Numbered from the stretch's first letter, positions 11,812-41,354 are shown. The stretch: DNA of 64,000 nucleotides from an uncultured Chloroflexia bacterium (GCA_963704935.1 CAVPIF010000003.1:1128004-1192003); one strand, 5' to 3'. Made by a program: numbers and translations. Notes: generated by a model not told the origin, from the sequence alone.

Positions 11812-11887
11812 ACGAGGCGGCACAGCTCGTGTGGATCCTGGCCCCTCGCCTGCCTGAGCCGGAGGGGTGGACCAAACGGACGAGTAG
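11812..11887 (+). pseudogene. 3' fragment of the small LuxR/GerE gene family (fragment F0)
   Basis: Encodes ..AQLVWILAPRLPEPEGWTKRTS-stop. It matches only the last ~25 codons of the intact copies at 18472, 27173, 38464 and 39994. The next ~35 nt (to ~11925) resemble the start of the junction block (CACGACGGCGC.CAGGATCC). Confidence 0.7.
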
Positions 11888-11917
11888 CGGGACCGCTTGG
11901 CCGCCGCACGACGGCGC

Positions 11918-12448
11918 TCAGGATCCCTCCTCGACCTTCATCTGCGCGATCCACGCCTCGCGTGTCGGGACCAGCGGTAACTTGAAGGCGATGACGAGAT
12001 AGACGAGGAAGAACAGGCCGGCCGTGACGAGCGCAAGGGCATAGAAGACGGTCCGGATCCAGTCGACGTCGATCTCCGAGTAGGCCGCGAGACCGGTGCA
12101 GACGCCGGCGATCTGTTGACCCTCGCGGATCCGGTGGAGCCGGCGCCGGCGAGGTCGATCCGCGATGACCGCCGCCGGCTGACCATCATCGGCACCAACC
12201 GACCCGACCTCATCGAGGACGACCGAGATGTCCCCCACCGTGAGGATGCGATCGTCGGATCCGAGGCGATCCGTGAGCTTCGCCCCGATCGAGCGCTCGA
12301 GGTCGCTCATGACCTCAGCCTGGTCTGGGTCATCGGCGAGGCGCGATCGAGCATGGTCGAGGTACCTGTCGAGGGCGTCGTAGGCATCCTCGTGCAAGCG
12401 ATACGGATTCGCGGAGCCGACCAGATCGATGTTGATCACCTTGTGCAT
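11918..12448 (-). CDS. PspC-domain membrane protein
   Basis: IAGVCTGLAAYSEIDVDWIRTVFYALALVTAGLFFLVYLVIAF is a PspC domain. The gene is 5 nt downstream of a PadR gene. Confidence 0.85.
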   Translation of the reverse strand: MHKVINIDLVGSANPYRLHEDAYDALDRYLDHARSRLADDPDQAEVMSDLERSIGAKLTDRLGSDDRILTVGDISVVLDEVGSVGADDGQPAAVIADRPRRRRLHRIREGQQIAGVCTGLAAYSEIDVDWIRTVFYALALVTAGLFFLVYLVIAFKLPLVPTREAWIAQMKVEEGS

Positions 12449-12453
12449 GGCGT

Positions 12454-12780
12454 CTATCTCCCCAGTTCTTCGATGAGGGCGGTGAGGGAGGCCCAGTACT
12501 CGCGGAACTCCCGCAACTGCGCCTGACCGCGGTCAGTGAGTCGGTAGTACTTGCGCGGCGGACCCGCGGCCGACTCCTGCCACTCGTAGTCGAGCAGACC
12601 CTCTCGCCGCATCTTGCTCAGCAGGGGGTACAGGGTCCCCTCCTGGGTCGCGAAGTCGGTCGTGCTCAGGCGCCGGATGATGTCGGCCGCGTAGACCACG
12701 TCCGACGACACGACGCCGAGGATGAGGAACTCGAGCAAACCCTTGCGCAGGGCGACGAGCTTGGCGGGGTCGATCATCAT
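12454..12780 (-). CDS. PadR-family transcriptional regulator
   Basis: LLEFLILGVV..YAADIIRRL..GTLYPLLSKMRREGLLDYEWQES..RKYYRLTDRG. The ATG at 12780 is preceded by GAAAGG; the ORF track starts at TTG 12798. Confidence 0.9.
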   Translation of the reverse strand: MMIDPAKLVALRKGLLEFLILGVVSSDVVYAADIIRRLSTTDFATQEGTLYPLLSKMRREGLLDYEWQESAAGPPRKYYRLTDRGQAQLREFREYWASLTALIEELGR

Positions 12781-12804
12781 GCTACCTTTCTCTATCAAGG
12801 TAGC
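12781..12804. promoter_or_regulatory. 8-bp inverted repeat over the PadR ribosome-binding region (candidate operator or hairpin)
   Basis: GCTACCTT-tctctatc-AAGGTAGC lies directly upstream of the PadR ATG. Confidence 0.4.
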
Positions 12805-12899
12805 GTGACGGAACTACACTGTCAACTGGCGCAGCCAATGGTCGTGCAAACGCCACCAGGCTCGACCGGGGCACCATGGGGGCGTGATGGAGGGCGGCA

Positions 12900-13802
12900 A
12901 TGCGGGGTGACCTTCGCGTCGAGCTTCCGGACGGGACCACGGTCGGGTACACGGAGGCCGGTGACCCTGCCGGTCCCCCGGTGGCGTACCTGCACGGGAG
13001 TCCGAGCTCCCGCCTGGAGGTAGGGCTCCCGGGGTTCTGTGAGGCGGCCGAGGACCTCGGCTTCCGGGTCCTTGCCCCGGACCGCCCCGGCATCGGCCTC
13101 TCGACGGCCTCCCGCTACTCGGTCGCGGACTACCCCCGACACGTACGCGACTTCGCCGACGCCGTGGGACTCGGGCGGTTCGCCGTCATCGGCGTCTCCG
13201 GTGGGGGCAAGTACGCCTGCGCCTGTGCCTGGCGGTTGCCCGACCGGGTGACACGAGTCGCACTGGTCTCGTCGACCTGCTCGTTCGATCTGCCCGGTGC
13301 TCGGGCGACGTGGAACGCGGACGACCGGCGGCTGTACCGGCTCGCCGACTGGGCGCCATGGCTGGTCCGTCTCGTCTTCGCCAAGGTCGCTCGTGACGTC
13401 AGGCGTGACCGGGACGCGCTGTTCCCCGCCGTGGAGCGCACCGTGGGGGACGCCGACAAGGAAGTCCTGGCCTCCGAGGGGTTCCGTGAAGCGCTCGGCA
13501 GAGACGCCAGTGAGGCGTTTCGGCAGGGAGGACGCGGTCCAGCCCACGATCTGACCCTTGAGGCCCGGCCGTGGGGTGTGCCGCTCGAGCGGATCCAGGC
13601 GCCGATCGAGATCTGGCACGGCGATGAGGATCGCGTTGTGTCGCCCGAGCAGAGCCGCATCCTGGCCCGGGCGCTGCCGCTCGCCACGGAACACTTCGTG
13701 CCGGGAGAGGGCCACTTCTCGCTGGTCGCCCGCCATGCCCAAGCCATCCTGCAGTCCGTCGCTGGCGAAGCGGGTGAGAACCCGCGCACTGTCAGCGCCT
13801 AG
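12900..13802 (+). CDS. Alpha/beta-fold hydrolase
   Basis: 300-aa ORF with HGSPSSR, the nucleophile elbow GVSGGG, and C-terminal HGDEDRVV..GEGHFS. Confidence 0.9.
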   Translation: MRGDLRVELPDGTTVGYTEAGDPAGPPVAYLHGSPSSRLEVGLPGFCEAAEDLGFRVLAPDRPGIGLSTASRYSVADYPRHVRDFADAVGLGRFAVIGVSGGGKYACACAWRLPDRVTRVALVSSTCSFDLPGARATWNADDRRLYRLADWAPWLVRLVFAKVARDVRRDRDALFPAVERTVGDADKEVLASEGFREALGRDASEAFRQGGRGPAHDLTLEARPWGVPLERIQAPIEIWHGDEDRVVSPEQSRILARALPLATEHFVPGEGHFSLVARHAQAILQSVAGEAGENPRTVSA

Positions 13803-13839
13803 CGCCGGTTGGCGAAGGCGAGAGGCGGGTCTACTAGGG

Positions 13840-14049
13840 GCGATTGGGGTCACAGCGTCTGGCTGGTGGATGTCGACGATGTGCAGCCACGCCGCAAGCA
13901 GCGCCTCCTGGACCGCGTCGGCCGCATCGGCGTCTCTGCGGAGAATCAGCCAGGCGGTGCGATGGAGCCGAATCGACGGCGCCCGCGGCCAGGGTCGAGA
14001 AGGCGTCGTGATCAGCGCTCCTGGCGCGAATGACGAGGTCTCGCTGCAT
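13840..14049 (-). pseudogene. Remnant of an ECF sigma-70 factor (region 2 only, frameshifted, truncated)
   Basis: RARSADHDAFSTLAAGAVD in one frame continues as RLHRTAWLILRRDADAADAVQEALLAAW in another. There is no region 4, and the reading then enters the antisense of the hydrolase gene. Confidence 0.45.
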
Positions 14050-14314
14050 CGGTTACCTGCACTGGCCGCGGCCGGGTGGCCGTGCTCAACCATCATGAGT
14101 CCGCGGACGGATCTCGAACTCGTCGAGACCCGCACCTTCAGCTCAAGCGTCATCTACCTCCGCTATCGCGTGGCACGCGAGCCGGCTCGGCCGTCGTCGA
14201 AGCCGAAGCCGGCATGACCCGGCCTCCGCCGACTCGTGGGTCAGCCTCCTCAGGGGAGCCGTTGGGCGAGGCAGCTCGACTCCCCTCGGCGGTCGCCGTG
14301 GATGACCGGGGGCG

Positions 14315-15418
14315 TCAGCGAGGAGACGTCGCGAGCGGCAGGGCTTCTTTCGGGAACGCCCGGCGGCCGAGCCAGAACGCCACGTTGACGAGCGCGATCA
14401 TCACCGGCACCTCGACCAGGGGACCGATGACTGCCGCGAACGCGGCGCCGCTGGAGATCCCGAAGGTCGCCACGGCGACCGCGATGGCGAGCTCGAAGTT
14501 GTTCGATGCCGCTGTGAACGAGAGCGAGACCGTCTGGCCGTAGGTCGCCTTCGCCCGGACGCCCATCCAGAACGTGACGAGGAACATGACCACGAAGTAG
14601 ATGAGCAGCGGGACGGCGATCCGCACGACGTCGAGGGGCAGGGCCACAATGTCCTCGCCCGTGAGGGAGAACATCACGATGATCGTGAACAGCAGGGCCA
14701 CCAGCGTGATCGGGCTGATCCGCGGGATGAACACCGCCTCGTACCAGGCGCGGCCCTTGCGGCGGATGAGGACGACCCGCGTGAGGAATCCCGCGATGAA
14801 CGGGATGCCGAGGTAGACGAACACGCTCCCGGCGATCTGCGGCACCGTGATCTGGACGACGGTCCCCTGGAGCCCGAACCACGTCGGCAGCACCGTGATG
14901 AACACGTACGCGAAGACCGCGTAGAACAGGACCTGGAAGATCGAGTTGAAGGCCACCAGGCCGGCGGCGTACTCGGGGTCGCCGCGCGCGAGGTCGTTCC
15001 ACACGATGACCATCGCGATGCACCGGGCGAGGCCGATGAGGATGAGGCCCGCCATGTACTCGGGGTAGTCGCGAAGGAAGACCACGGCCAGGGCGAACAT
15101 CAGCAGCGGCCCCACGACCCAGTTCTGGACCAGCGAGAGTGCCAGGATCTTCACGTCGCGGAAGACGCGGCCGATCTCCTCGTAGCGGACCTTCGCGAGG
15201 GGTGGGTACATCATCAGGATCAGCCCGACGGCGATGGGGATCGAGGTCGTGCCGACGCTCAGCCGGTCGAGGAACGGGACGACCCCGGGCGCGAGGTAGC
15301 CGAGGGCGACGCCGAAGGCCATCGCCGCGAAGATCCAGACCGTGAGGTATCGGTCGAGCAGCTTGAGGCGCCGGGCAGGCGCGGCTGCGGCGAGCGCCGC
15401 CGGAGCGGGGACGGTCAT
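14315..15418 (-). CDS. acr3: ACR3-family arsenite efflux transporter
   Basis: 367-aa polytopic [41 protein letters not shown] and [15 protein letters not shown] are ACR3 hallmarks. Confidence 0.95.
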
Positions 15419-15555
15419 CGCGCGAGACTCGGTCGCGGCGTCCGGCCCGCCGCCGCCAGACCGATCCGGTTGAAGTCGGCGATGAGCTCGGCCGGCACCC
15501 CGAGGACCGCCTCGGCGATGAGCAGGTCGTCGGCGAGCGCGAGGTAGACGGTCAT
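15415..15555 (-). pseudogene. N-terminal stub (46 codons) of a Doc/Fic-type toxin
   Basis: [33 protein letters not shown] resembles the first third of Doc toxins and lacks the HxFxDGNKR motif. Its ATG overlaps the antitoxin stop (ATGA at 15552..15555). Its stop overlaps the acr3 ATG (ATGA at 15415..15418). Confidence 0.5.
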
Positions 15556-15764
15556 CTGGCCAGACGTTCGAGGATCTCGCGATTGCGCTCGATGCTGGCC
15601 TTCAGGCGCTGTCGGAAGTCGGGGTCGGACCGGCGAGCCTCGATGTGGGCGGCGATCGCCCGCTGGATCTCTTCGTTGACCGAGACTTCGTCGACGCCGG
15701 CGATCGCCTCGAGGGCTTCGGCCTGGTCGGCAGGTAGTCGCAGGGTGCGGGACTTGATCGTCAT
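15552..15764 (-). CDS. Ribbon-helix-helix (CopG/Arc-type) antitoxin
   Basis: [22 protein letters not shown].. has the RHH beta-strand and helix pattern, and the gene lies upstream of the Doc stub. The ATG at 15764 was preferred to the track start at 15797. Confidence 0.7.
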
Positions 15765-15925
15765 GGCGGCGTCCAGTTCGTGGAGCGGTGCTCCCATGAT
15801 ACCACGGTATCTCGGTGCGCCTGCCGTCGCGATCCACTCATCCCCTGGCTACACGGAGCTCGTTCGCCCTTCTGTGCTCCAGCCTACCCATGGTCAGGCC
15901 GCACGGACAGGAGTAGGCTGCGCCC

Positions 15926-17101
15926 GTGGTTGACCAGGGAGGGACGACCCAGCGGCTTGCGGCAGTGCTGGGCGGCGCGCTCCTCGTGTTCACGGTCAGC
16001 GGATGCGCCGGCGGGTCGCCATCGCCCTCCGCACTCGCCTCTCCGTCTGGGGAGCCCACGACGCCTTCACCATCTGCTTCAGCCTCCTCGGAGCCCAGCG
16101 ATCCCGCCGCAGGTACCTGGATCCCGGCGCCAGGCATGGTGGCCGCGCGCACCTATCACACGGCTACCCTCCTGAACGACGGCACCGTGCTGGTGGCCGG
16201 CGGGGAGGGCAGCGCCTCCCCCCCGCCCGCCTCCGCGGAGATCTATGACCCGATCGCCGGGACATGGACGGCCATCGCCGATATGCACCGCGGCAGGCGT
16301 GGCCACACTGCCACGCTGCTTCTGGACGGCAGGGCCCTCGTGGTAGCGGGCGACTGCGATGAGGTCAACCACGTCGGCTCGGCCGAGCTGTACGACCCCG
16401 AGACGCGGACCTGGACCATGACCGCGAGCCCGACCGGGGAGGCCTGCGGCGATCAGACAGCCACCCTGCTGCTCGACGGCACGGTCCTGCTGGCAGGCGG
16501 CGAGGGCATTGGCATCGATTCCTCGTTTGCCTTGGCCGAGCTGTATGACCCGGACACCGAAACCTGGACCGTTACCGGGAACATGATCGAGGACCATCAC
16601 GGGCATACGGCCACCCTGCTGCTCGACGGCACGGTGCTGGTGGTGGGCGGTGGCCGCAGCGACGGTTCACCAGTCGGGGCCGAGCTATACGACCCGCGCA
16701 CCAGGACCTGGACTGCTGCGGGAGCCGTTCTCGGAGGGCACCACAATCATGCGGCCACGCTGCTGCCCGATGGCAGGGTGCTGGTGTCGGGAACCGGCGG
16801 AGGCGGGGCGCAGGTGTCGGCCGAGCTATACGACCCTGACAGCGGGTCCTGGACAGCGGCCGCACCCATGCTCGAGGACCGCTCCGGTCACACCGCCGCA
16901 CTGCTACTGGATGGTCGCGTGCTCGTAGCTGGCGGCCAAAGACCCGCTGAGCTGTATGACCTCGAAACAGGGGCCTGGGCTGCCGCCGCTCCGGCTGGGG
17001 GCAGCGCCGCCGAGACCGCAACGCTGCTAAATGACGGTCGAGTGCTGGTCGTTGGCGGCGGAAGCGCCAGCCTGTTCGTCCCCGGAGATCAGCCAACGTA
17101 G
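15926..17101 (+). CDS. Kelch-repeat (beta-propeller) lipoprotein, copy 1
   Basis: Signal peptide plus lipobox (LLVFTVSGCAG), a Pro/Ser linker, then ~7 repeats of AELYDPxTxTWTxxxxMxxxRxxHTATLLxDGxVLVxGG. Paralogue at 42124..43299. Confidence 0.85.
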   Translation: MVDQGGTTQRLAAVLGGALLVFTVSGCAGGSPSPSALASPSGEPTTPSPSASASSEPSDPAAGTWIPAPGMVAARTYHTATLLNDGTVLVAGGEGSASPPPASAEIYDPIAGTWTAIADMHRGRRGHTATLLLDGRALVVAGDCDEVNHVGSAELYDPETRTWTMTASPTGEACGDQTATLLLDGTVLLAGGEGIGIDSSFALAELYDPDTETWTVTGNMIEDHHGHTATLLLDGTVLVVGGGRSDGSPVGAELYDPRTRTWTAAGAVLGGHHNHAATLLPDGRVLVSGTGGGGAQVSAELYDPDSGSWTAAAPMLEDRSGHTAALLLDGRVLVAGGQRPAELYDLETGAWAAAAPAGGSAAETATLLNDGRVLVVGGGSASLFVPGDQPT

Positions 17102-17476
17102 GCCCGGCCCGATGCCCAACCGACGGCGACCGCACGATCTGATGTCGCGGCCAGGCCAGCGCCGGTACGACTCTGCATCGGGCATCGAGGGCAGTCCGGC
17201 CACCCGTTGCAGGCTACGCCGTCGTCGCTTCGCCACAACTCCAGCTCGCCCACCCGATCGACGTCCTGGTTCCGGGCGCCCAGTGCGAGGACTTGCCTGC
17301 CCGAGACGCTCACCCTGCAGGGCCGCGCCCGCTCAAGCGTCGAGATCCAGCTCGAGCCGTTGGTCGATGTCGCGACGATGTCGACGGCTGAGGCGTTGCC
17401 GCATTCCGGCTGGCAGATCGTGCCGATGGCGCCGACTGACGCCCCGCGACCTCGCCCGCGGCGGCTCGTCTCGAGG

Positions 17477-17881
17477 TCAGGCGGTCACGACCGCGAGGCC
17501 AAGGGCGCGAGCCGCCTGCGCCTGGCGCAGGTCGAACGTCAGGAAGCTCACCCCGGGCTCGGAGACCCGCTGCGCGGCCGCCAGGTGGAGGGCGTCGAGC
17601 GTTCGCACGCCGGTCGCCTCCGCGATCGAGGCCGCCGACTCGCAGGTCGCCTCGTCGAGCTCGACGATGGAGATGGAGCGCAGATCGTCCGCGAAGGCGG
17701 CTCGCGCGGCGACGAGGTCACGTCCCGAGAGCAAGCGGGCGAGGATGCGGCGGACCTCGACGATCGTGTGTCGGGCCGTCAGGAGCCCGTGATCGGCCCG
17801 CAGCAGCGCGTCCGCGGCGGCCGAGTCGGCCTCCTCCACGTAGCGCTTGAGCAGGGCGCTCGAGTCGACGTAGGTGCTCAC
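17477..17881 (-). CDS. vapC: PIN-domain toxin VapC
   Basis: YVDSSALLKRYVEE..TLDALHLAAA pattern of PIN acidic residues. The start overlaps the vapB stop by 4 nt. Confidence 0.9.
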   Translation of the reverse strand: MSTYVDSSALLKRYVEEADSAAADALLRADHGLLTARHTIVEVRRILARLLSGRDLVAARAAFADDLRSISIVELDEATCESAASIAEATGVRTLDALHLAAAQRVSEPGVSFLTFDLRQAQAARALGLAVVTA

Positions 17882-18138
17882 TCGCCGCGGTCCTCAGCCA
17901 GCACATCGAGCACCCGCCTCGACGCCTTCGACCGGTGCGCCGGCCCGAGCGGCGAGCCCGTGCCCGGGGTGATCCAGCCGGCACGAATCCCGTCCTCGAT
18001 CCGAGCGCGGCCCGGCACCGGGCCGAGTACCGCCTTCGGCCGCCCGCGGTCGGTGACTCGCAGGACCTCTCCTCGCTCCGCCCGGTCCAGGTACTCGGAC
18101 AGGCGCTGCTTCAGTTCCCGGATCCCGACGTCAGCCAT
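17878..18138 (-). CDS. vapB: Phd/YefM-type antitoxin (VapB)
   Basis: MADVGIRELKQRLSEYLDRAERGEVLRVTDRGRPKAVL is a typical Phd/YefM N-terminus. It forms an operon with vapC. Confidence 0.85.
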   Translation of the reverse strand: MADVGIRELKQRLSEYLDRAERGEVLRVTDRGRPKAVLGPVPGRARIEDGIRAGWITPGTGSPLGPAHRSKASRRVLDVLAEDRGE

Positions 18139-18375: not shown

Positions 18376-18391
18376 TGGCCGGGGCGAGAGG
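18376..18391 (+). repeat. att-like copy (15/16) of the 3'-terminal 16 nt of tRNA-Pro(CGG)
   Basis: TGGCCGGGGCGAGAGG versus TGGTCGGGGCGAGAGG at 43446..43461. The ~50 nt to its left resemble the Fic-side flank of the copies at 27077 and 38368. A LuxR ATG lies 81 nt to its right. Confidence 0.7.
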
Positions 18392-18471
18392 GATAGCCCC
18401 GCCACCAACGACCTTCCGATCGCGATGCGTCTCGCCGAGCCGCCGGAGCCCATCGAGCTGGTCCGCAGCGC

Positions 18472-18801
18472 ATGACGCGACGGTCGTCCCGCCGCCCCGC
18501 CGAGCGCGCGACCGACCGTGAGGTCGGCGTGGTCGCTGCCGTCCTGGTCGCCGGCTCGGAAAAGGCAGCCGCGCACCGGCTCGGCCTGGCGCACTCGACC
18601 GTGAAGCACCATCTGGCGAACGCCCGGTCCAAGGTCGGGGTGGCCACGACGGCGCAGCTCGTCTGGATCCTGGCGCCGCGCCTGCCAGAACCCGAGGAGG
18701 GAGCGGCAGAGGGACGGTCTGCGATCGCAGCCTCCGACGGTCGCCAGGCTGAGCGGAATGCAGCGGGCAGCGATGTCGATCGCCTTGACCGTGGTAGGTG
18801 A
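18472..18801 (+). CDS. Small LuxR/GerE-type HTH protein (copy L1, with a 30-codon C-terminal extension)
   Basis: MTRRSSRRPAERATDREVGVVAAVLVAGSEKAAAHRLGLAHSTVKHHLANARSKVGVATTAQLVWILAPRLPEPE, then extra residues instead of the usual stop. Its stop overlaps a GTG of the next ORF (GTGA at 18798). Confidence 0.8.
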   Translation: MTRRSSRRPAERATDREVGVVAAVLVAGSEKAAAHRLGLAHSTVKHHLANARSKVGVATTAQLVWILAPRLPEPEEGAAEGRSAIAASDGRQAERNAAGSDVDRLDRGR

Positions 18802-18860
18802 CGAGCCCATCGTGGACCGATCCATCCAGTGCCGTCGCGACCGAGGAGGAGTTGAGTTCG

Positions 18861-19574: not shown

Positions 19575-19708
19575 CATGGCCCAAACGGCCAAGTAGAAAC
19601 CGCGGCGCCTCCCCGCCACCCTTGGAGGCATGACGGCGCGCTGGTCCGATCCAGGTCGACTCCCGGGCCCTCGGCCTGTTGCGACCCCGGGTACGCCCGC
19701 GCCGTCAG
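19575..19708 (+). repeat. Junction block copy P_b (LuxR 3' remnant plus LuxR-5'-like leader), not followed by a lysis cassette
   Basis: CATGGCCCAAACGGCCAAGTAGAAACCGCGGCGCCTCCCCGCCACCCTTGGAGGCATGACGGCGCGCTGGTCCGATCCA.. matches the blocks at 20512, 31710 and 41218. Similarity persists, with an insertion, to ..GGGTACGCCCGCGCCGTCA. Confidence 0.75.
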
Positions 19709-33873: not shown

Positions 33874-33928
33874 GGGGCGACCGGCAGGCGGAGGCGAACA
33901 GGGGCAGCAAGGGCACGAACCTGGGTGG

Positions 33929-34747
33929 TCACTGGGTGGTCACCGCTAGCGTCCCCTCCATGCCCGGCCGATGCCCAGGGATCGCGCACCAGTACGTGTA
34001 GGATCCGGCGGCCGCAAGGTTCAGCACAACCGCGACCGTTGAGTTGCCCGGCACGGGCCACGACAGGTGCTGGCCACCGAGCTCGATGTCGAAGGTGTGG
34101 GCCCCGGCTCCGGGATTGACGACGTAGATCGTCCCCGGACCGGTCACCAGCCGTAGGCTCTTCTGCGTGAACGTCGCCGCGGTGGCGTCCAGCTCCACGG
34201 GAGCCTGGCCAGGGGCGCTGAGCACGCCATTGACAACGCCGAGACCGGGGGATCCCTGCAGGGCATCGAAGCCGCGCAGCGAGACGTAGCTCGTGCCGAT
34301 CAGCATGCCCAGGGCGAGGATCGCCAGCGCTTCCCCAATGGGAGCTCGCAGCGCTCGGACGATGGGCTCGCCGCGTCGCAGCTCCAGGAATGCGGCGAAC
34401 CCGGCGATCGCACCGGCGACGCCAACGACGATGGCGATGATGTCGGTCCAGGCGTGGCTCGTGGATACGGGATCGACCAGCGCGTCCGTGACGAACGGGA
34501 GGTTCATGGCCACGAAGGCAAGCAGCAGGATGCCGCCCGCCAGGAACACGCGCCGACCAGGGCGGGCAAGTCCCAGCGCCGCAACGACGGCGAGGATCAC
34601 CCCGAACACAACGAGCGCCGGCTCGATCCCGATGCTGCTCACGACCGCGACCAGAACCAGGGTCTCGATCGCGGCGGCGAACGGCATCAGCCACATCGCG
34701 GTGCTTCTCGTGCCACGCGCGGCGGCCAGGTTCCGTGGTGAGGTCAT
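33929..34747 (-). CDS. Membrane-anchored cupredoxin (type-1 copper) domain protein
   Basis: ~5 N-terminal TM helices, then a C-terminal domain ending YTYWCAIPGHRPGMEGTLAV (the Cys-x2-Pro-Gly-His-x3-Gly-Met copper site). Confidence 0.8.
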   Translation of the reverse strand: MTSPRNLAAARGTRSTAMWLMPFAAAIETLVLVAVVSSIGIEPALVVFGVILAVVAALGLARPGRRVFLAGGILLLAFVAMNLPFVTDALVDPVSTSHAWTDIIAIVVGVAGAIAGFAAFLELRRGEPIVRALRAPIGEALAILALGMLIGTSYVSLRGFDALQGSPGLGVVNGVLSAPGQAPVELDATAATFTQKSLRLVTGPGTIYVVNPGAGAHTFDIELGGQHLSWPVPGNSTVAVVLNLAAAGSYTYWCAIPGHRPGMEGTLAVTTQ

Positions 34748-34770
34748 CGGGGGACGCAGCCTCGCTAGAT

Positions 34771-34797
34771 GTCACACTAGTCTTGTCACTAGTGAGT
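34771..34797. promoter_or_regulatory. Twin ACTAGT palindromes in the cupredoxin/TetR divergent intergenic region (candidate TetR operator)
   Basis: GTCACACTAGTCTTGTCACTAGTGAGT, with TCACTAGTGA a perfect 10-bp palindrome. It lies 25 nt upstream of the TetR ATG. Confidence 0.45.
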
Positions 34798-34821
34798 GAG
34801 ATAGGTAGAGTGAACCGCGTC

Positions 34822-35466
34822 ATGTCCGCTGTCAAGCCCTCCCGCGCGCCCAAGCCCACCCGACGCGAACGCGCTCAGGCGACCAGGATCCGGATCACCA
34901 AGGTCGCCTACAGGCTGTTCAGCGAGCGCGGATACGCCGAGACAACGATGGCCGAGATCGCCGAGGCGGCCGGCGTCGCCGTCCAGACCGTCTACTTCAC
35001 GTTCCACACCAAGGGCGAGTTGCTCAGCCGTGCCTTCGACTTCGCCGTCCTGGGCGAGGATGGACCGCTTCCGCCGGAAGAGCAGGATTGGTACGCGCGG
35101 ATGACCGCCGAGCCCGACCTTGTCGTGGCGCTCCGCCACCTGGTCACCGGCGTTGGCACGATCAACGTTCGGGCGACGCCGCTCGACACCGTTGTTCGGG
35201 CGAGCGCCGAGAGTGATCCCGACACGGCGCGGGTCTGGGCATTCCACGAGCGGCTACGCGCTGACGCGCACCGGGCCATCCTCGAGATCCTCGTTGCAAA
35301 GGCGCCGCTCCGTGACGGCATGACACCGGAGCGCGCAACGCACCTGCTCCTGTTCTACCTCGGCTCCGATGCCTACCGGCCGCTCGTCCGTGACTTCGGC
35401 TGGACGCACGAGGAGTGGGTCGACTGGACCATCGCGACCATCGCCGACCAACTCTTCGCCAGCTGA
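34822..35466 (+). CDS. TetR-family transcriptional regulator
   Basis: TRIRITKVAYRLFSERGYAETTMAEIAEAAGVAVQTVYFTFHTKGELL. Confidence 0.9.
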   Translation: MSAVKPSRAPKPTRRERAQATRIRITKVAYRLFSERGYAETTMAEIAEAAGVAVQTVYFTFHTKGELLSRAFDFAVLGEDGPLPPEEQDWYARMTAEPDLVVALRHLVTGVGTINVRATPLDTVVRASAESDPDTARVWAFHERLRADAHRAILEILVAKAPLRDGMTPERATHLLLFYLGSDAYRPLVRDFGWTHEEWVDWTIATIADQLFAS

Positions 35467-35474
35467 ACGGGCCG

Positions 35475-36158
35475 ATGACCCTGACAGCGGTTCAGGCGCC
35501 GCCTCGACCGACACGCCCGAAGCTCGTCGTCCCGGGCGCCGTGGCTGGGGCAGTGGCGCCGCTCACGTTCGCCGCCGCCCACGCCCTCCTGATCAGCGAC
35601 ATCTGGTATTCGGCGGTGGGGATGATGATCGCCGGGGCAGCGTGTGGCGCCACGATCGGATGGTCCTACGGACGCCTGTTCGATCCATCGATCCGAACCT
35701 GGCTGGGCTACAACGCCAGCTACGTCATCGCGCTCGCGGTGCTCGCGTTGGCGTCGGTGGCAGCATTCGAGCCCAGGATGACCATGGCAGAGTTGCTCAC
35801 CACGGACGGCCCGCCGAGCGATCTCATTGGCGCTGCCTTGCCCATGACCATCCTGTTTACGCTCGGCGCCGCGGCGACCCTGAGCGTCCTGTTCGATCGG
35901 ACGCTGGCGGGGTTCGGCGCGATCTTCGTCACCTGCTCGGTGCTGGTCGCGCTCCTTGGGCTGAACGTCTCGGTCATCGGCCTGATCCAGATCCCGACGA
36001 ACTCGCTCTACCTGGTGGCCGAGCTGTTCGGCCTGATCGTCGTCCTAGCCGGGTCGTTCGCGGCGGTCGTCATCGCGCTCGCGTGGAAGCAGTTCGGCGC
36101 TCGCTCCGACGTGCCTGAGCGGCGCATGGACGATTGGTCGGAGGCCGGCCACTCGTAG
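35475..36158 (+). CDS. Hypothetical six-TM membrane protein (downstream of TetR)
   Basis: ATG at 35475 (MTLTAVQAPP..), followed by six hydrophobic helices. Confidence 0.7.
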   Translation: MTLTAVQAPPRPTRPKLVVPGAVAGAVAPLTFAAAHALLISDIWYSAVGMMIAGAACGATIGWSYGRLFDPSIRTWLGYNASYVIALAVLALASVAAFEPRMTMAELLTTDGPPSDLIGAALPMTILFTLGAAATLSVLFDRTLAGFGAIFVTCSVLVALLGLNVSVIGLIQIPTNSLYLVAELFGLIVVLAGSFAAVVIALAWKQFGARSDVPERRMDDWSEAGHS

Positions 36159-36224
36159 CTGGTCCCGCAGGCGTAGCACCGCAAGCGAATAGACCGCGCC
36201 CGCCTTCCAGCCGACGATTCGCGG

Positions 36225-36668
36225 GTGAAGCTGTGCACGGTCTGCGGTGTCGCCACCAGCCGCACTGGTAGCCGCTGCGCCGAGCACGCACGGCAGTCCA
36301 ACCGCAGCAGGCACAACGCCCTGTACAGCACGCGGGCATGGCAGCGTCTCAGCGCCCGCGTGCTGCTGGCGTGGCGTGGTGAGCACGGCAATTGGTGCCC
36401 GGGCTATCAGCGTCCAGCCCACCGCGCTGCCGACCTCACCGTCGACCACGTCGTGTCGCTCGCCGCTGGCGGTGCGCCGTTCGACATCGCCAACACCGCG
36501 GTGCTATGCCGCTCCTGCAACTCGACGAAGGGTGCGTCAGTCGACGCGGACCGGGGTGGGGTAACCCATATGGGGCCACGGCTGAACGCTGACCGCGCCG
36601 CGCGACCGTGTGCACGCGGCCGGGTTTCGCCCGTTATGGGGGGTTTTCGCCAGTGGGGTGGTGCATGA
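36225..36668 (+). CDS. HNH endonuclease (phage-type), copy 2
   Basis: Paralogue of 24930..25373 with the same CxxC/DH/N/CxxCN layout. By eye ~90 percent nucleotide identity. Confidence 0.85.
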   Translation: MKLCTVCGVATSRTGSRCAEHARQSNRSRHNALYSTRAWQRLSARVLLAWRGEHGNWCPGYQRPAHRAADLTVDHVVSLAAGGAPFDIANTAVLCRSCNSTKGASVDADRGGVTHMGPRLNADRAARPCARGRVSPVMGGFRQWGGA

Positions 36669-36964
36669 GCGCTGACGCCGAGGCTGTCGCTGCGTCGGCG
36701 ACGATCGCCCTCCGCGCGAGCCTCGCGCCGCCGCGCCACTGCCCGGCCTGCGGCGCCAAGCTCCCGTATCTCGGTGGGCGGGGCAGGCCGCGCCGGTGGT
36801 GCGACGCCCATCATCCGCGTCCCTCGCGGCTTCGACCGCGGGCGTCCCAGGGCTCCGGCGTGCCCGCGGCCACGCTCGCGAGGGCGTGCGCGCGGAGATC
36901 CCGCCCCGCGATCTCGCTGACTGTCCGCCCGTGGGCGCCCACGTCGGCCGACGTGGCGCAATGA
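36665..36964 (+). CDS. Possible small zinc-ribbon protein, copy 2 (doubtful)
   Basis: MSADAEAVAASATIALRASLAPPRHCPACGAKLPYLGGRGRPRRWC... The C-terminal frame differs from copy 1. Confidence 0.3.
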   Translation: MSADAEAVAASATIALRASLAPPRHCPACGAKLPYLGGRGRPRRWCDAHHPRPSRLRPRASQGSGVPAATLARACARRSRPAISLTVRPWAPTSADVAQ

Positions 36965-37016
36965 ACTCGAGGGTGGCATGGACGCGACCCGACCCAGATA
37001 GTGGCCCGGGGCTGCC

Positions 37017-38228
37017 CTATGGCATGGGCCGCGCACTCCGTGCCGGGCCGACGATCCCCTCCTCGTAGGCCCTGAGAAGGTCGAACAGCTCGGTCGCTGC
37101 GTACTGGCGGTCGTACGTGCCCTCGCTCAGCTGGCGGATGACCCCAGCCTCGGCCAGCGCCTTGAGCGCGGCGAGCGTCTGCTGCTGGCTGACGCCGATC
37201 GCCGCGCGGGCGGTCGGCGCGGACAGCGCCGGCAGCGCGGGGAGCAGCGCGATGAGCTTGCTCGCCGCTGATCCAGCCCTTGGGCGGCCGGCGCGCTCAC
37301 GCCACTCGCTCTGGAGCGCCGCCACCTGGTCCGCGAGCTCGATCGACGCGGCCGCCGCTCGCCCGGCTGCCTCGGAGAAGGAGCCGATCCACGCGGCAAC
37401 GCGCCCTTCGCGGAACGCCGTGAGCCCCTCGACGTAGGCGGTGGGCCGGGCCGCCAGGACGATGCTGACCGGCGGGACAAACCGGGCGGCGACACCGCGG
37501 CGCCGCAGCACCACGTGGATGAGGGCCCGGCCGACGCGGCCGTTGCCGTCGATGAAGGGGTGGATGGTTTCGAACTGCGCGTGGGCGATGGCCGCCTGCG
37601 CCACCGCGGGCAGGTCGTCCCGGGCGACGAAGGCAGCGAGGTCCTCAAGCAGCGGCATGACGATGTCCTCGGGCGGCGGCACGAAGACCGCATCGGACGG
37701 GTTCCCGAGCCGGCCACCGATCCAGTTCTGCTCCTCGCGCACTCGGCCGGGTCGCGCCCGCTCGTCGCCCGCCATGAGCACCGCGTGGATCGCCAGCAGG
37801 TCGGCGACGGTCACCGGCTCCGTGCGGTCCCCGATCGTGATCGCCTCCTCCATCGCGGACACGTTCGCCGCGACGATCCTGGCGCTGCCCCGTGCCGCCC
37901 GAGGGTCGATCAGCGCCCGGGCGAGGTTGAGCGAGGAGACGTCGTAGCCCTCGATCCGGGACGACGCCACGGCCTCCGATCGCAGGAGCAGCGGGCCGAT
38001 CGCTTCGAGGCCGCCCACCGAGGCGCGCTCGTTGAGCGCCCGGATCGCCGCCTCCGCATCCGCCGACAGGTCGGCGACTTCGAACGGGACGACGGGGCTG
38101 AGCGCGGCGATCTCGTCAGGGACGAATGCCTGGTACCGGAACGAGGCACGCGCCCGGCGTCCACCCACCGCGCCAGGGTCTCCTTCCCAAGTCCGCTCGA
38201 CGGTCCTCGGCACACGGCCTCCTGTCAC
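37017..38228 (-). CDS. Fic-family protein, copy 2 (identical to copy 1)
   Basis: The 403-aa translation is identical to 25726..26937, at an offset of 11291 nt. Confidence 0.95.
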   Translation of the reverse strand: MTGGRVPRTVERTWEGDPGAVGGRRARASFRYQAFVPDEIAALSPVVPFEVADLSADAEAAIRALNERASVGGLEAIGPLLLRSEAVASSRIEGYDVSSLNLARALIDPRAARGSARIVAANVSAMEEAITIGDRTEPVTVADLLAIHAVLMAGDERARPGRVREEQNWIGGRLGNPSDAVFVPPPEDIVMPLLEDLAAFVARDDLPAVAQAAIAHAQFETIHPFIDGNGRVGRALIHVVLRRRGVAARFVPPVSIVLAARPTAYVEGLTAFREGRVAAWIGSFSEAAGRAAAASIELADQVAALQSEWRERAGRPRAGSAASKLIALLPALPALSAPTARAAIGVSQQQTLAALKALAEAGVIRQLSEGTYDRQYAATELFDLLRAYEEGIVGPARSARPMP

Positions 38229-38367
38229 AACCCTTCAGTCTCTTTGCATAAATGAAGGAATAAGACGAGGCTGCACCCATAACCCTTCAATGTCAACTGG
38301 AAATCCAAGGGAAGCGAGGGGCGCCAATGTCGCGACGCAGGTGTCGCCGATCTCGCAACTCAAGAAT

Positions 38368-38383
38368 TGGTCGGGGCGAGAGG
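38368..38383 (+). repeat. att-like exact copy of the 3'-terminal 16 nt of tRNA-Pro(CGG)
   Basis: TGGTCGGGGCGAGAGG in the same context as 27077. Confidence 0.75.
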
Positions 38384-38463
38384 GATAGCCCCGCCACCAA
38401 CGACCTTCCCATCACGATGCGGCTCGCTGAGCCGTCAGAGCCGCTCGAGCTGGTCCGCAGCGC

Positions 38464-38712
38464 ATGACGCGACGGTCATCCCGCCACGCCGCCGAACTTG
38501 CCACCGACCGTGAGGTCGGGGTGGTCGCCGCCGTCATCGCGGCTGGCTCCGAGAAGGCGGCTGCTCACCGCCTGGGCCTGTCGCACTCGACCGTGAAGCA
38601 CCATCTGGCGAATGCGCGGTGCAAGGTGGGGGCGGAGACGACGGCGCAGTTGGTATGGATCCTCGGTCCGCGGCTGCCGCAGCCGGACGGCGCGGCACAA
38701 GCGGACGACTGA
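38464..38712 (+). CDS. Small LuxR/GerE-type HTH protein (copy L3)
   Basis: MTRRSSRHAAELATDREVGVVAAVIAAGSEKAAAHRLGLSHSTVKHHLANARCKVGAETTAQLVWILGPRLPQPDG. Confidence 0.85.
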   Translation: MTRRSSRHAAELATDREVGVVAAVIAAGSEKAAAHRLGLSHSTVKHHLANARCKVGAETTAQLVWILGPRLPQPDGAAQADD

Positions 38713-39006: not shown

Positions 39007-39060
39007 GGCGATCGGGCAGCCGACTGACCATCAGACGTCCCGTCGCCCCACACTTGGGGC

Positions 39061-39330
39061 ATGACGGCGAGCTGGTCCGATCCACACCATGCGTAGGCTC
39101 CCGGATCCCCCACCTGGTCAGAAAAGGCGGCGGCCCATCGGCTCGGCCTGTCGCAATCGACGGTCAAACACCATCTGGCGAATGCGCGATCGAAGGTCGG
39201 AGCGGTGACGACGGCGCAGCTGGTCTGGATCCTCGGCCCGCGGCTGCCTGAGCCCGAGGGTCTGGCCCAAACGGACGAGCAGCGGCTTGTGAGGCATACC
39301 CGGCGGGAATCTCGACACGGAACGCCTTGA
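39061..39330 (+). pseudogene. Degenerate small LuxR gene (F3) with junction-block-type 5' end and premature stop
   Basis: ATGACGGCGAGCTGGTCCGATCCACACCATGCGTAG (MTASWSDPHHA-stop), then in frame ..SEKAAAHRLGLSQSTVKHHLANARSKVGAVTTAQLVWILGPRLPEPEGLAQTDE.. with the normal stop replaced by CAG. Confidence 0.6.
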
Positions 39331-39413: not shown

Positions 39414-39953
39414 ATGAGCACCGACGGGATTGACACCCTGACCGACGGAGTGATCACGCTTCGACCGTGGCGGCACGATAACTGGCGGGCGGTCTTTCAT
39501 GCCTGCCAGGACGACCTGATTGCGCGCTTCACGCCGATTCCACTTCCCTACACGGAGGACTCGGCGCACGGCTTCATCTCGATGTGCGAGGACGCTTGGA
39601 CGACGGGCCGCGAGCATCCGTTCGCCATCGCCGACGCCGCCACCGACGCCGTGCTCGGCTCGATCACCCGGCACGCCCCGTGGGGCCACTCCGTCCAGTT
39701 CGGCTACTGGGTCGCGGCGGAGGCGCGGGGCCGGGGCGTCGCCACCCGCGCGCTCCGGCTGATCGCCGACTGGACGCTCGCCACCACGGACCTGGTCCGG
39801 CTCGACCTCTACACGCACCCGGAGAACCACGTCTCCGGCCGCGTGGCGCTGGGGGCCGGCTTCGCCCTCGAGGGCGTGCGGCGGGCGTGGGAACTCGACC
39901 GGGACGGCAACCCCGAGGACGCGATCTTCTACGTACTCGTCCGGGGCGCGTAG
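39414..39953 (+). CDS. GNAT-family N-acetyltransferase (RimJ/RimL-like)
   Basis: ITLRPWRHDNW..FGYWVAAEARGRGVATRALRLIADW..NHVSGRVALGAGFALEG. Confidence 0.9.
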   Translation: MSTDGIDTLTDGVITLRPWRHDNWRAVFHACQDDLIARFTPIPLPYTEDSAHGFISMCEDAWTTGREHPFAIADAATDAVLGSITRHAPWGHSVQFGYWVAAEARGRGVATRALRLIADWTLATTDLVRLDLYTHPENHVSGRVALGAGFALEGVRRAWELDRDGNPEDAIFYVLVRGA

Positions 39954-39993
39954 CGTGCGGCTCCTGCACGCGCACGCTGCGCGCGCTGAGCGC

Positions 39994-40239
39994 ATGACAC
40001 GACGGCCGTCCCGCCCCGCCGGATGCGCCACCGACCGCGAGCTCGCGGTGGTCGCCGCGGTCCTCGCCGCCGGATCCGAGAAGGCGGCCGCCCACCGCCT
40101 TGGCTTGGCGCACTCGACCGTCAGGCACCACTTGGCGAACGCCCGGTCGAAGGTGGGAGCGACGACCACGGCCCAGCTGGTCTGGATCCTGGCGCGGCGG
40201 CTGCCTGAGCCCGAGGCCGCGGTCCAAACGGAGGAGTAG
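39994..40239 (+). CDS. Small LuxR/GerE-type HTH protein (copy L4)
   Basis: MTRRPSRPAGCATDRELAVVAAVLAAGSEKAAAHRLGLAHSTVRHHLANARSKVGATTTAQLVWILARRLPEPEAAVQTEE. Confidence 0.85.
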   Translation: MTRRPSRPAGCATDRELAVVAAVLAAGSEKAAAHRLGLAHSTVRHHLANARSKVGATTTAQLVWILARRLPEPEAAVQTEE

Positions 40240-40268
40240 CGCCTACCCGCCGATGACGTTGCGAGCCC

Positions 40269-41108
40269 TCAGCCGCCCGCTGGCTTGATGGCCGTGGCGA
40301 TCGCAAGTAGCTGGTCGAGGGTCATGTCCGCCTCGTTGCCGACCAGCGCGACGCCATCCGGGCCGACCATCCACTGCAGCAGCAGCTCGCCCGACTCGGG
40401 CTCGCGCAGGAGCACGCCCGGGCTGCCGCCGATCTGGACGGTGCTCCGCTCCGGGCCGCCGCCGATCTGGGTCGCCGCGCCGAACGCCTGGTAGAGGTCG
40501 AGCTGGCCCCGGCCGCGGTTGCTACCAGTCACGTGCGAGCCGGCCGGGGCGTAGACGCGCACCCAAAGCGGGGGCTCGGCCGCCGGCTCGTCGCCCGACC
40601 ATTGCAGCTGCCACCCCGACGGCAGGACCTGCGGCTCCGCGAGGCCGGAAGGCGGCCTGACCCACAGGGTCCCGCCGGCGACGTCGTGGACCGTGGAGCC
40701 GGTGAACGGGGCCGGCAGAAGCAGGTGGAAGGTGTACCCGTGGCCGACGGCGGCGCAGGCCACGTTCGGCGGCGCCGTCGCCTGGTCGGGGTGCGGGACG
40801 AGCACCACCGCAACCTGGAGGTCGGGGCCTGCGGTTGCCACCCACGGCGCGTAGTCGGTCGAGCAGAAGTCCCCCGGCGTGTACGCGAGGCCGCCGGTGA
40901 AGCTGAGCGTCAGCGTCCGGCCGTCGGCGCTGATCGTCGCGTCGTCGACGCGGGTCTGCTGGTCGGCCGGTGGCTCCGGCGGGTAGTCGGGGCCGAAGGT
41001 CTGCTCGTAGGGCTTCGGCGACGACGGCGGCGCTCCAGGTCCCGCCGAGCATGCCGCGGCGACAACCGCCAGCACCACAACCGCCATCCACCGCGACAAC
41101 TCGGACAC
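40269..41108 (-). CDS. Hypothetical lipoprotein
   Basis: Signal peptide plus lipobox (VVLAVVAAACSAG). 279 aa. No family recognised. Confidence 0.7.
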   Translation of the reverse strand: MSELSRWMAVVVLAVVAAACSAGPGAPPSSPKPYEQTFGPDYPPEPPADQQTRVDDATISADGRTLTLSFTGGLAYTPGDFCSTDYAPWVATAGPDLQVAVVLVPHPDQATAPPNVACAAVGHGYTFHLLLPAPFTGSTVHDVAGGTLWVRPPSGLAEPQVLPSGWQLQWSGDEPAAEPPLWVRVYAPAGSHVTGSNRGRGQLDLYQAFGAATQIGGGPERSTVQIGGSPGVLLREPESGELLLQWMVGPDGVALVGNEADMTLDQLLAIATAIKPAGG

Positions 41109-41217
41109 CCCAATGCAGCGGGCCTCCCGCAGGCCTCCTCACAGGATGTCGGACGCGGACGGGAACGCGCAAGTTCCGTTTGACTCCATGGCTTCCGATC
41201 GAGCCCGGTCTGGAACC

Positions 41218-41354
41218 CATGGCCCAAACGGCCAACTAGAAACCGCGGCCCGGCGCCGCCACCCTTCCGTCATGACGGCGCGCTGGTCTGATCCACACCG
41301 ACTCCCGGGTCCCCCCGCCGGGTACGTCCGCGCCGTCAACGCCGCAGGTGCCCG
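41218..41354 (+). repeat. Junction block copy P_e preceding lysis cassette 3
   Basis: CATGGCCCAAACGGCCAACTAGAAACCGCGG..CATGACGGCGCGCTGGTCTGATCCACACCGACTCCCGGG... It is preceded by GAGCCCGGTCTGG, which resembles the LuxR 3' end. Confidence 0.75.

Follow-up and report, generated by a model that had tools for sequence, protein, structure and literature searches.

In bacteriophage lambda the late regulator, the morons, the lysis genes, cos and the terminase follow one another in that order, and in the lambdoid and Stx phages cargo is carried between the late regulator Q and the lysis genes. The composite SCCmec islands (staphylococcal cassette chromosome, SCC) are built at rlmH by the Ccr serine recombinases, and arrays of integrative and conjugative elements (ICE) and cis-mobilizable elements (CIME) are found at tRNA or fda genes. 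The mosaicism of temperate phages has been described as involving relaxed or illegitimate recombination with defective prophages (PMC3945230). A survey of Mycobacterium abscessus reported serine integrases with cores of 5-8 bp inside open reading frames (ORFs), and assigned tRNA targets with long cores to tyrosine integrases; in the integration-dependent immunity of mycobacteriophages, the phage attachment site (attP) lies inside the repressor gene, and viral Rep and Int carry C-terminal tags (PMC8092301). The locus described here lies in a stretch of 64,000 nucleotides from an uncultured Chloroflexia bacterium (GCA_963704935.1, CAVPIF010000003.1:1128004-1192003), which is referred to in its entirety as the window, has a G+C content of about 70%, and contains many copies and fragments of one small LuxR/GerE-type regulator gene separated by unrelated cargo genes. 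The region from approximately 11.8 to 43.5 kb is probably a tandem pile-up of decayed temperate phages, inserted at the 3' end of a tRNA-Pro(CGG) gene by a large serine recombinase (LSR), and would then represent ordinary phage biology with an unusual integrase arrangement, and not a new gene-capture system. Searches of the literature returned no described system that matches it.

A DNA profile of the LuxR gene, run over the window with nhmmer, detected eight copies or fragments, all on the plus strand, with E-values between 1e-8 and 4e-74. Four of them extend over all or nearly all of the gene: 18472-18712 (gene positions 1-241, E 3e-68), 27173-27417 (1-248, E 5e-72), 38464-38711 (1-248, E 4e-74) and 39994-40238 (1-248, E 3e-68). 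The remaining four are pieces, at 39113-39280 (80-247, E 2e-39), 30194-30354 (103-247, E 9e-27), 29312-29389 (162-238, E 6e-11) and 11818-11886 (179-248, E 1e-8). Translation and tblastn recovered the same four full copies as intact small LuxR-type ORFs, together with three 3' fragments (30224, 29314 and 11812), which read TTAQLVWILAPRLPEPEG when translated, and a copy near 39061 interrupted by a stop; all copies listed in the initial annotation of this DNA were therefore found, on the strand it had given, by nhmmer, tblastn and Pfam. The intact copies match the Pfam family GerE/LuxR (PF00196) with scores of 25.7 and 30.6 bits (cut-off 23.5), and the protein shows a weak match to the FixJ C-terminal domain (1x3u). 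At approximately 81 aa it is a stand-alone helix-turn-helix (HTH) protein, lacking the N-terminal receiver or autoinducer-binding domain of classical LuxR/NarL regulators, and its best PHROG match is a family resembling region 4 of sigma factors. A multiple alignment bore out the assertion that every piece keeps its 3' end, which is common to all of them up to the stop codon, and that the 5' end is lost to a variable extent. The similarity among the pieces is of family level (about 80-85%) and does not mark a fixed site; the 45-nt nucleotide core that had been proposed for them found no match within three mismatches in a literal search of the window.

Individually, these copies display a variety of ends. 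The leftmost fragment (gene nt 179-248; 11811..11890, plus strand; nhmmer and self-blastn) begins where the left-flank synteny with a relative's locus, L015, stops, at 11814. Copy 1 (18472..18801, plus, 109 aa) has had its C-terminus replaced from about nt 212, and shows 98.9% identity to the locus L063 from there onward. Copy 2 (27173..27418, plus, 81 aa; Pfam and nhmmer) and copy 3 (38464..38712, plus, 82 aa; nhmmer) are followed in the array by, respectively, the fragments at 29312..29389 (nt 162-238, plus; nhmmer and self-blastn) and 30194..30354 (nt ~103-247, plus, with homology clear from about 30219), and the copy near 39061. The latter, annotated initially as a nearly full copy interrupted by a stop, does contain an in-frame stop, and is instead a chimera (39039..39287, plus) in which the start of the ORF of J, the leader of the lysis module, reading MTASWSDPH..., is joined to LuxR nt 80-247. 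Copy 4 (39994..40239, plus, 81 aa) has no scar of the kind described below, and its upstream homology stops 5-25 nt before the ATG. The four copies regarded at the outset as intact genes are thus intact as ORFs, and three of the four are the right-hand remnants of a larger integrase-LuxR unit.

The origin of that unit is revealed by the tRNA-Pro(CGG) gene (43446..43522, minus strand; ARAGORN and Rfam), which lies exactly at the right end of the array with its 3' end facing it, as the attachment target and attR side, and which is abutted by a remnant of an integrase C-terminal coding tail of the recurrent ...GWDAAFGAGVVRVKEGQS class (43366..43445, plus). On its left side the conserved LuxR unit begins abruptly, 96 nt before the ATG, and its first 16 nt, TGGTCGGGGCGAGAGG, are the antisense of the tRNA-Pro 3' end, diverging at the T-loop. 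Such a scar precedes three of the four full LuxR copies in the window: scar 1 (18376..18471, plus) matches the antisense tRNA-Pro 3' end over 16 nt with one mismatch and runs into a phage-side arm, GATAGCCCCGCCACC..., and scars 2 (27077..27172, plus) and 3 (38368..38463, plus) consist of the exact 16-mer and the phage-side arm. Because the 16-mer is the tRNA's 3' end and is followed by the arm and then by LuxR, each scar-bearing full unit is an attL-type junction, and the integrase tail, 16-mer and remaining tRNA together form the corresponding attR. The phage-side arm doubles, in the attP form, as the final ~33 codons of the integrase. The predicted attP would accordingly comprise the integrase tail, the 16-mer TGGTCGGGGCGAGAGG, the GATAGCCCC arm and LuxR, with tRNA-Pro as the predicted attB, and the contiguous arrangement of integrase, 16-mer, arm and LuxR is present in viral and tandem forms. 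A search of 11-44 kb with Rfam at E <= 0.1 detected the tRNA and no other structured RNA.

A scan of one genome per species yielded 74 loci, almost all of them in metagenome-assembled genomes (MAGs) of Candidatus Limnocylindria/Limnocylindrales and other Chloroflexota, and these demonstrate the generality of the same junctions. The 16-mer occurs approximately 108 times in the relatives' loci, nearly always on the LuxR strand and up to six times per 20 kb; in 55 of these occurrences the arm follows and LuxR begins 96 nt downstream, about 10 belong to genuine tRNA-Pro genes, and some 40 are joined to other arms. One relative, L003, shares with the window both the tRNA-Pro gene and a glutamine synthetase III right flank. 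A sister family at tRNA-Arg(CCG) has the same layout: 21 of the 38 LuxR copies with homology starting at nt 10-36 carry the antisense tRNA-Arg 3' end and an arm upstream, and the tRNA-Arg-type arm ends in ...RRLA and a stop codon that overlaps the LuxR start. Homology starts at nt 17-35 were considered as truncations and rejected as such, as they belong mostly to this tRNA-Arg-linked subfamily with its different N-terminus. Two additional observations concern the tRNA genes and their 16-mers. A second tRNA-Pro gene in the window (anticodon TGG; 57797-57873, minus) has no detected LuxR unit or 16-mer scar adjoining it. In L001 (17220-18041) and L019 (904-1725), a HepT-like/MNT toxin-antitoxin element of 838 nt has tRNA-Pro 3'-end 16-mers as its exact boundaries; the two genomes carry it at different array positions, with 96.7% identity, and it may be an integrase-less mini-element inserted in trans.

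When all ORFs of the loci were clustered, an LSR emerged as the second commonest family, after LuxR itself, and as the only recurrent recombinase in the approximately 75 loci. In the relatives its gene lies directly upstream of LuxR on the same strand, with a stop codon that overlaps the LuxR start. The proteins (514-544 aa) carry the Resolvase domain PF00239 in L054, L055 and L076, the Recombinase domain PF07508 above threshold in L074 only, and a cluster of three to four cysteines; they match the PHROG category 'integrase', and the relatives alone display the catalytic motif R-E-S-T-x-G-Q (residues 26-28). A sequence search with the integrase among solved structures detected no relative. The window keeps only C-terminal tails of the LSR, its last ~40 codons, upstream of three LuxR copies. 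We infer from this arrangement that the LSR catalyses the integration at tRNA-Pro, and its unusual part would be that a serine integrase targets a tRNA and has attP inside its own 3' end (L076:1850-2010; L054:681-745). The phage form, which is coupled to LuxR, ends in ...ARPTG-VGRGITTYEIPIEGRDEWLVAAGLGA and a stop codon; after integration the sequence is ...ARPTG-FEPATFGSGGRRSIR and a stop codon, running into the antisense tRNA, so that 26 residues follow ...ARPTG in the phage form versus 15 in the integrated form. Integration thus swaps the last ~15-26 residues of the integrase and uncouples the LSR from LuxR, and only the phage or tandem form is translationally coupled to it. An attP placed inside the integrase gene could act as an integration-dependent switch.

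The 81-aa protein is itself widespread, with at least 2,992 homologous clusters in metagenomes at E <= 0.001; the 120 top matches listed show 78-90% identity and are mostly of about 81 aa, and the exact sequences of the window proteins at 27173 and 38464 are not on record. The search of other genomes that had been recommended showed the same LuxR array flanking different cargo in many of them. In L001, for example, the layout is the same and the cargo is different: an intact LuxR gene, cargo, a LuxR fragment from nt 123, cargo, a fragment from nt 76, cargo, a J block and the lysis genes found in the window. Two predicted viral contigs, L076 and L077, also carry the LuxR gene. The first (42 kb) contains an intact 518-aa integrase across a tRNA-Arg-type site, and then LuxR, cargo, J, cargo, a LuxR fragment (positions 111-248), cargo and a second J, along with an endolysin-like peptidase, a membrane protein, an HTH paralogue, a toxin-antitoxin pair and HNH. 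Past its HNH-like region, L077 continues with a ParB/DNA-methyltransferase gene, TerS (PF05119) and TerL (PF03354, PF20441), and the two contigs taken together contain the terminase, lysis and integration genes of a temperate phage. A third contig from IMG/VR, L078, has a tRNA-Pro-type junction and ends before LuxR; upstream of that junction (1826-6302) it encodes a primase/polymerase, an exonuclease and a Holliday junction resolvase. A recombination machinery of this kind, supplied by the phage, could drive the relaxed exchange that is proposed below.

In the phage (attP) form, the proposed gene order would begin with the integrase, with attP in its last ~33 codons, and proceed through the LuxR-type regulator, variable cargo ('morons') and the J leader to the lysis genes, the HTH paralogue, more cargo, HNH, and the terminase and structural genes. 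Integration would leave LuxR at the left end, just after the attL scar, and the integrase at the right end beside the rebuilt tRNA, so that the prophage would read attL, LuxR, cargo, J, lysis, HTH paralogue, cargo, HNH, terminase and onward to integrase and attR (tRNA). Since the tRNA is rebuilt at each insertion, the next phage can insert at the same place, and successive phages would do so and then decay. On this model the window would hold at least three or four decayed prophages in a row, among them three or more scar-bounded remnants (18376-27076, 27077-38367 and 38368-43445), with older material extending leftward to about 11.8 kb. Both kinds of fragment, LuxR 3' ends and J left ends, would be the scars of unequal, mostly illegitimate exchange or deletion involving collinear genomes, the partners being either tandem prophages or a phage and a prophage. 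Each event would join 'LuxR, cargo A, (J left part)' to '(LuxR right part), cargo B, J, lysis ...', such that cargo would add up and one full set of essential genes would be kept, and homologous crossovers inside the conserved ~350-nt LuxR unit would also swap flanks. The tRNA gene, the scars, the integrase tails and, in relatives, the phage genes are directly visible in these sequences; the initial annotation had missed the first three of them, and with them the phage nature of the modules.

The origin of the fragments by exchange or deletion we infer from the anatomy of their junctions. Across the loci, 158 LuxR matches are co-oriented within each locus with one exception; 63 of them are full length, and 72 lack the 5' end and keep the 3' end. 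After removal of the tRNA-Arg subfamily and one duplicated locus, about 75 loci show 37 copies deeply truncated at the 5' end (first matching position nt 46 or beyond) with the 3' end retained, versus three deeply truncated at the 3' end with the 5' end retained, which extends the polarity first noted in the window. The left junctions of the fragments are spread over nt 46-183 with unrelated DNA upstream, and are therefore attributable to illegitimate joining. Where events are recent, a fragment is co-inherited with its right-hand DNA and the left side differs. A single crossover site was considered and rejected, as recent breakpoints fall at -109, -96, -42, +123, +158, +212 and +245. One further tract in the window, within a repeated segment designated block B, loses its identity 43 nt before a LuxR ATG, indicating that homologous crossovers take place within the conserved unit as well.

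Unequal exchange or deletion would be expected to leave the opposite asymmetry in the J leader downstream, and this mirror pattern was borne out. All 65 matches to J and the lysis leader are co-oriented: 19 are full, 34 keep the left end only, three keep the right end only, and nine are cut at both ends, starting no more than 31 nt from the left edge. In about 11 of the 34 left-keeping matches the J-ORF is complete and leads into a different downstream module; the asymmetry persists when these are set aside. In six to seven cases a J-left fragment directly abuts a 5'-truncated LuxR fragment, as it does in the window (39039-39118 and 39113-39280). In L016, J directly follows a full LuxR gene, from which it follows that J is the native neighbour of LuxR and that cargo has come to lie between them. 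The J block in other genomes is preceded by a LuxR tail of 68-97 nt or by a full-length LuxR gene, and the four junction blocks of the window (19575, 20512, 31710 and 41218) open, as had been stated, with a LuxR 3' remnant, the first ~20 nt of each being the LuxR 3' end with its stop codon. A LuxR fragment and a duplication of J are both found within one viral contig, L076. This fragment pattern fits classical moron accretion and phage mosaicism.

The initial annotation had read the same array as an integron-like footprint, with DNA repeatedly captured at the LuxR 3' end. A dedicated system of that type, in which circular cassettes are added singly at this end by a site-specific enzyme, would account for its near-constant retention (37 versus 3), for the cassette-like size of the segments between units (n = 65, median ~1.1 kb), for a cargo of toxin-antitoxins, GNAT proteins, methyltransferases and DUF proteins that resembles the cassettes of chromosomal integrons, and for a semi-conserved extension of ~35 nt past many of the stop codons. 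It is nevertheless improbable: the left junctions are scattered, and the right boundary is a zone reaching from about nt 221 to +40, many copies having the extension and others diverging earlier; conservation of third-codon positions is not raised at the LuxR 3' end; the cargo occupies both strands, and in other genomes it turns up again inverted or with no LuxR nearby; the sole recurrent recombinase would act at a tRNA-derived site upstream of LuxR; and the mirror-image pattern in J is not predicted. Capture at the LuxR 3' end thus gives way to a site-specific scar 96 nt upstream of the LuxR start and to scattered left ends. Of the two mechanisms put forward for it, that of an unknown site-specific system was correct in invoking a recombinase and misplaced its site, which would be that of an LSR on tRNA-Pro and not LuxR; illegitimate recombination anchored on LuxR homology comes close to what the junctions display. 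Serial, independent acquisition, which had also been proposed, agrees both with the divergence of adjacent copies and with the recurrence of the architecture around different cargo. Adjacent LuxR copies have a median identity of 0.806, versus 0.811 for copies from other genomes (p = 0.72), and since neighbours are as divergent as foreign copies, each piece appears to have been imported independently and not duplicated locally. The same comparison argues against a single ancestral event in which LuxR was duplicated locally, with deletions and insertions of unrelated DNA afterwards and without horizontal acquisition; an ancestral duplication had been named as a possible refutation. Large duplications do exist in the window (block B at 95.5% overall, the Kelch gene at 95.8%), and one adjacent pair in L006 is a recent duplicate; given the same architecture with different cargo in dozens of genomes, and an attL scar of its own at three of the four full window copies, that explanation is very improbable. 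The other such possibility, that the fragments are chance matches in GC-rich, low-complexity sequence, could appeal to the failure of the literal nucleotide core to match within three mismatches, and is practically eliminated by profile E-values of 1e-8 to 4e-74, by the translated fragments and by conservation of the pattern across genomes.

A closer alternative accepts the tRNA site and invokes mini-elements: short integrase-less units bounded by arms, some of them led by LuxR, would be inserted singly at the tRNA in trans by the integrase of a complete phage, in a serine-recombinase analogue of SCC/CIME accretion whose scars were lost by later deletions. The intervals between tRNA-end 16-mers, mostly 0.8-5 kb and far below phage size (many of those between tRNA scars are only 0.8-3 kb), are what this would produce; so is the 838-nt HepT/MNT element, and so are at least 20 LuxR units in which homology stops at -99 to -123 with no integrase remnant upstream. 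Deletion of prophage interiors explains the short intervals equally well, however, only the one recurrent mini-element was found, the LuxR fragments lack scars, and L076 alone already holds a fragment and a duplicated J; trans-mobilisation is thus an unlikely source of the array. Comparably doubtful is a joint reading, in which the tRNA-Pro and tRNA-Arg loci of Limnocylindria would be a serine-recombinase analogue of the integron/SCC platform combined with an integration-dependent switch. Phage integrases would there insert complete phages and, in trans, integrase-less mini-elements (such as the HepT/MNT element and short modules headed by LuxR), so that cargo arrays would grow cassette by cassette, and the swap of the C-terminal tail and the lost LuxR coupling would alter recombinase activity or late-gene control.

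Several results weigh against a pile-up of decayed phages, the reading that we favour. The window contains no intact integrase or structural phage gene, each of the scar-bounded remnants likewise lacks them, and the phage nature of the window would accordingly be deduced from the homology of its modules to those in other contigs. Neither excision nor integration junctions were seen directly, and five close pairs in the one-genome-per-species set displayed no clean insertion or deletion of a single module. The core of 16 bp at a tRNA 3' end departs from the LSR norm of a 2-8 bp core that usually lies within an ORF, and leaves room for a different, unseen integrase. Breakpoints cluster modestly near LuxR nt 78, for which a CCGGGT microhomology with J is a partial explanation, and right-hand breakpoints occur at a higher density within LuxR than in the integrase gene, which is far longer; this difference requires an extra assumption, either a packaging limit or selection against junk DNA.

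The oldest remnant carries its cargo within 11918..18138: an alpha/beta hydrolase (12900-13802), an SBF transporter (14315-15418, minus), a Kelch-repeat protein (15926-17101) and a PIN toxin (17477-17881, minus), all identified with Pfam, and upstream of the toxin a small partner ORF from the gene calls (17878-18138, minus). Its left limit may lie further out than 11814. In L015 (3704-3765) a LuxR tail is present on the far side of the DUF2652 gene, a gene that in the window has the appearance of left chromosomal flank, and because of this the island's left limit could be near 10477, with DUF2652 (10477-11814) itself a part of the cargo.

Beyond LuxR copy 1 lie a class I methyltransferase (18852..19538, plus; Pfam) and J block 1 (19575..19710, plus), a LuxR tail joined to the left ~100 nt of the J/lysis leader and truncated on the right (J profile 1-101). 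J block 2 and its lysis module form a segment designated block A (20509..22182, plus; self-blastn, Pfam, PHROG and J profile), which encodes a small membrane protein (20765-20998, plus), an Amidase_2/LysM endolysin matching the PHROG phage endolysin families (20995-21723, plus), a holin-like membrane protein (21735-21935, plus) and an HTH paralogue (21932-22180, plus). Block A is followed by variable cargo that includes a PadR-family regulator (22292..24668, the regulator at 22413/22824-23147; gene calls and Pfam), and by block B (24870..27129; Pfam and self-blastn), with an HNH endonuclease (24924-25373) and a Fic protein (25726-26937, minus). Self-comparison demonstrated that block A recurs at 31707 (77%) and at 41217 (84-89%), and that block B, taken as 24870-27396, recurs at 36165 with 95.5% identity over the whole block.

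In the second scar-bounded remnant, the cargo consists of a winged-helix regulator (27500-27805, minus), a membrane protein (27798-28439, minus) and a DUF4287/DUF5655 protein (28729-29289), which occupy 27500..29289 and were identified with Pfam; a gene without a Pfam match (29544..30182, minus); and a DUF1801 protein with a MerR/GyrI-like regulator (30387..31618, minus; Pfam). The module at 29511-30229 is 91% identical to positions 5716-6432 of L020, near which no LuxR fragment is present. J block 3 and the second copy of the lysis module (31707..33397, plus, 77% identity to the first) end in an HTH paralogue (33147-33395), and are followed by four genes of variable cargo (33403..36158; gene calls) and the second copy of block B (36165..38420; HNH and Fic; self-blastn). 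The third remnant holds a GNAT acetyltransferase (39414..39953, plus; Pfam), a secreted or lipoprotein-like protein without a Pfam match (40269..41108, minus), J block 4 with a partial third lysis module truncated on the right (41217..41872, plus; self-blastn and J profile) and the second Kelch-repeat gene (42124..43299, plus, 95.8% identity to 15926-17101). The ORFs at 21932 and 33147 are, as described initially, diverged HTH paralogues that close their modules, here the lysis module (tblastn identity 42-49%, E ~1e-9), and Pfam agreed with the earlier assignments of methyltransferase, winged-helix, DUF4287, DUF1801, MerR and GNAT proteins. The view that each interval between LuxR 3' ends holds one self-contained module applies to some intervals; others hold a whole prophage remnant. 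The only phage-type genes that survive in the window are those for the endolysin (PHROG lysis families), the holin-like proteins and HNH. A megablast search of 25 kb against phage and plasmid collections returned no match, and Pfam identified only housekeeping and signalling genes, and no recombinase, among the flanking genes.

Several repeats were also recorded. A tract of 1.46 kb (25674-27131 versus 36965-38422), which spans Fic, the scar and ~38 nt at the start of the phage arm, shows 99.9% identity between its two copies, and stops sharply 43 nt before the LuxR ATG, after which identity is about 83%; the lysis modules of the two host remnants are only 77% identical. This tract looks like a recent gene conversion or duplication. 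The Kelch tracts (15876-17113 versus 42074-43311) are 95.8% identical and have internal repeats of ~50 aa; one copy lies ~1.3 kb upstream of scar 1 and the other beside the tRNA, each at the right end of its own element. In the left flank, a direct repeat of 248 nt (4292-4539 versus 9252-9497, 96% identity, ~5 kb apart) flanks genes for a hybrid histidine kinase and a GGDEF response regulator. Finally, the ORF at 58200-59807 contains three tandem copies of a sequence with a period of ~174 nt and 62-76% identity (58342-58784), the motif of which may resemble a cell-surface anchoring repeat.

The significance of the locus lies in the replacement of a suggested, unknown mode of gene capture by a concrete and testable mechanism, that of serial phage integration at a tRNA accompanied by unequal recombination, and in the recognition of a large family of temperate phages, not characterised before, whose hosts are abundant, uncultured Chloroflexota of soil. 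The predicted attB and attP sites of tRNA-targeting serine integrases are unusual for the class and may serve the integrase toolbox, and the nested LuxR and J scars preserve an uncommonly clear natural record of the build-up of phage cargo. The arrays are frequently situated at the ends of contigs, also in MAGs from long reads (for example L003, L020, L030, L044, L055 and L064), which suggests that their repeats break assemblies there, and they probably explain the assembly breaks at many of these loci.

Among known systems, integrons resemble these arrays in having an ordered series of small and diverse accessory modules, a recurring punctuation and a site-specific recombination site nearby. 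The initial statement that integron features are absent was correct: no IntI-type tyrosine recombinase was present among those window ORFs that were scanned, which were not all of them, and the boundaries are scattered gene fragments instead of attC sites, for which no explicit covariance search was made. Unlike integron cassettes, the cargo has no common orientation, with that at 27500-28439, 29544-30182, 30387-31618 and 40269-41108 of the window lying on the minus strand. The accretion of SCCmec, ICE and CIME elements provides a nearer likeness, in the regenerated 3' end of the target, the single orientation, the direct repeats between elements and the many elements that lack a recombinase; the elements here are phages, and the repeat is the 3' end of a tRNA.

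The integrases share with the LSRs of phiC31, Bxb1 and A118 an N-terminal resolvase domain with the serine motif, a gene beside attP, hybrid attL and attR sites after integration and, putatively, a large C-terminal region with a Recombinase domain and cysteine cluster, and differ from them in targeting a tRNA 3' end with a core of 16 bp, in restoring that tRNA, and in having attP inside the integrase 3' end. As in the integration-dependent immunity of mycobacteriophages, attP lies within coding sequence and C-termini differ between the integrated and excised forms; the split gene here is that of the integrase itself, a serine and not a tyrosine enzyme, rather than that of a repressor. The arrangement of the cargo corresponds closely to moron accretion, in that hypervariable cargo lies between a small late-region regulator and the lysis cassette, upstream of the packaging genes; that the cargo is self-contained and on either strand; that its junctions contain parts of the flanking genes; and that the partners are related phages or their remnants. 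Unlike the regulator of lambda, which is an antiterminator of the Q type, the one found here is a bare 81-aa HTH protein of the GerE/LuxR type, and the hosts are uncultured Chloroflexota; and, unlike moron accretion elsewhere, the process has left scars that are unusually many and orderly, with up to seven LuxR pieces in 20 kb.

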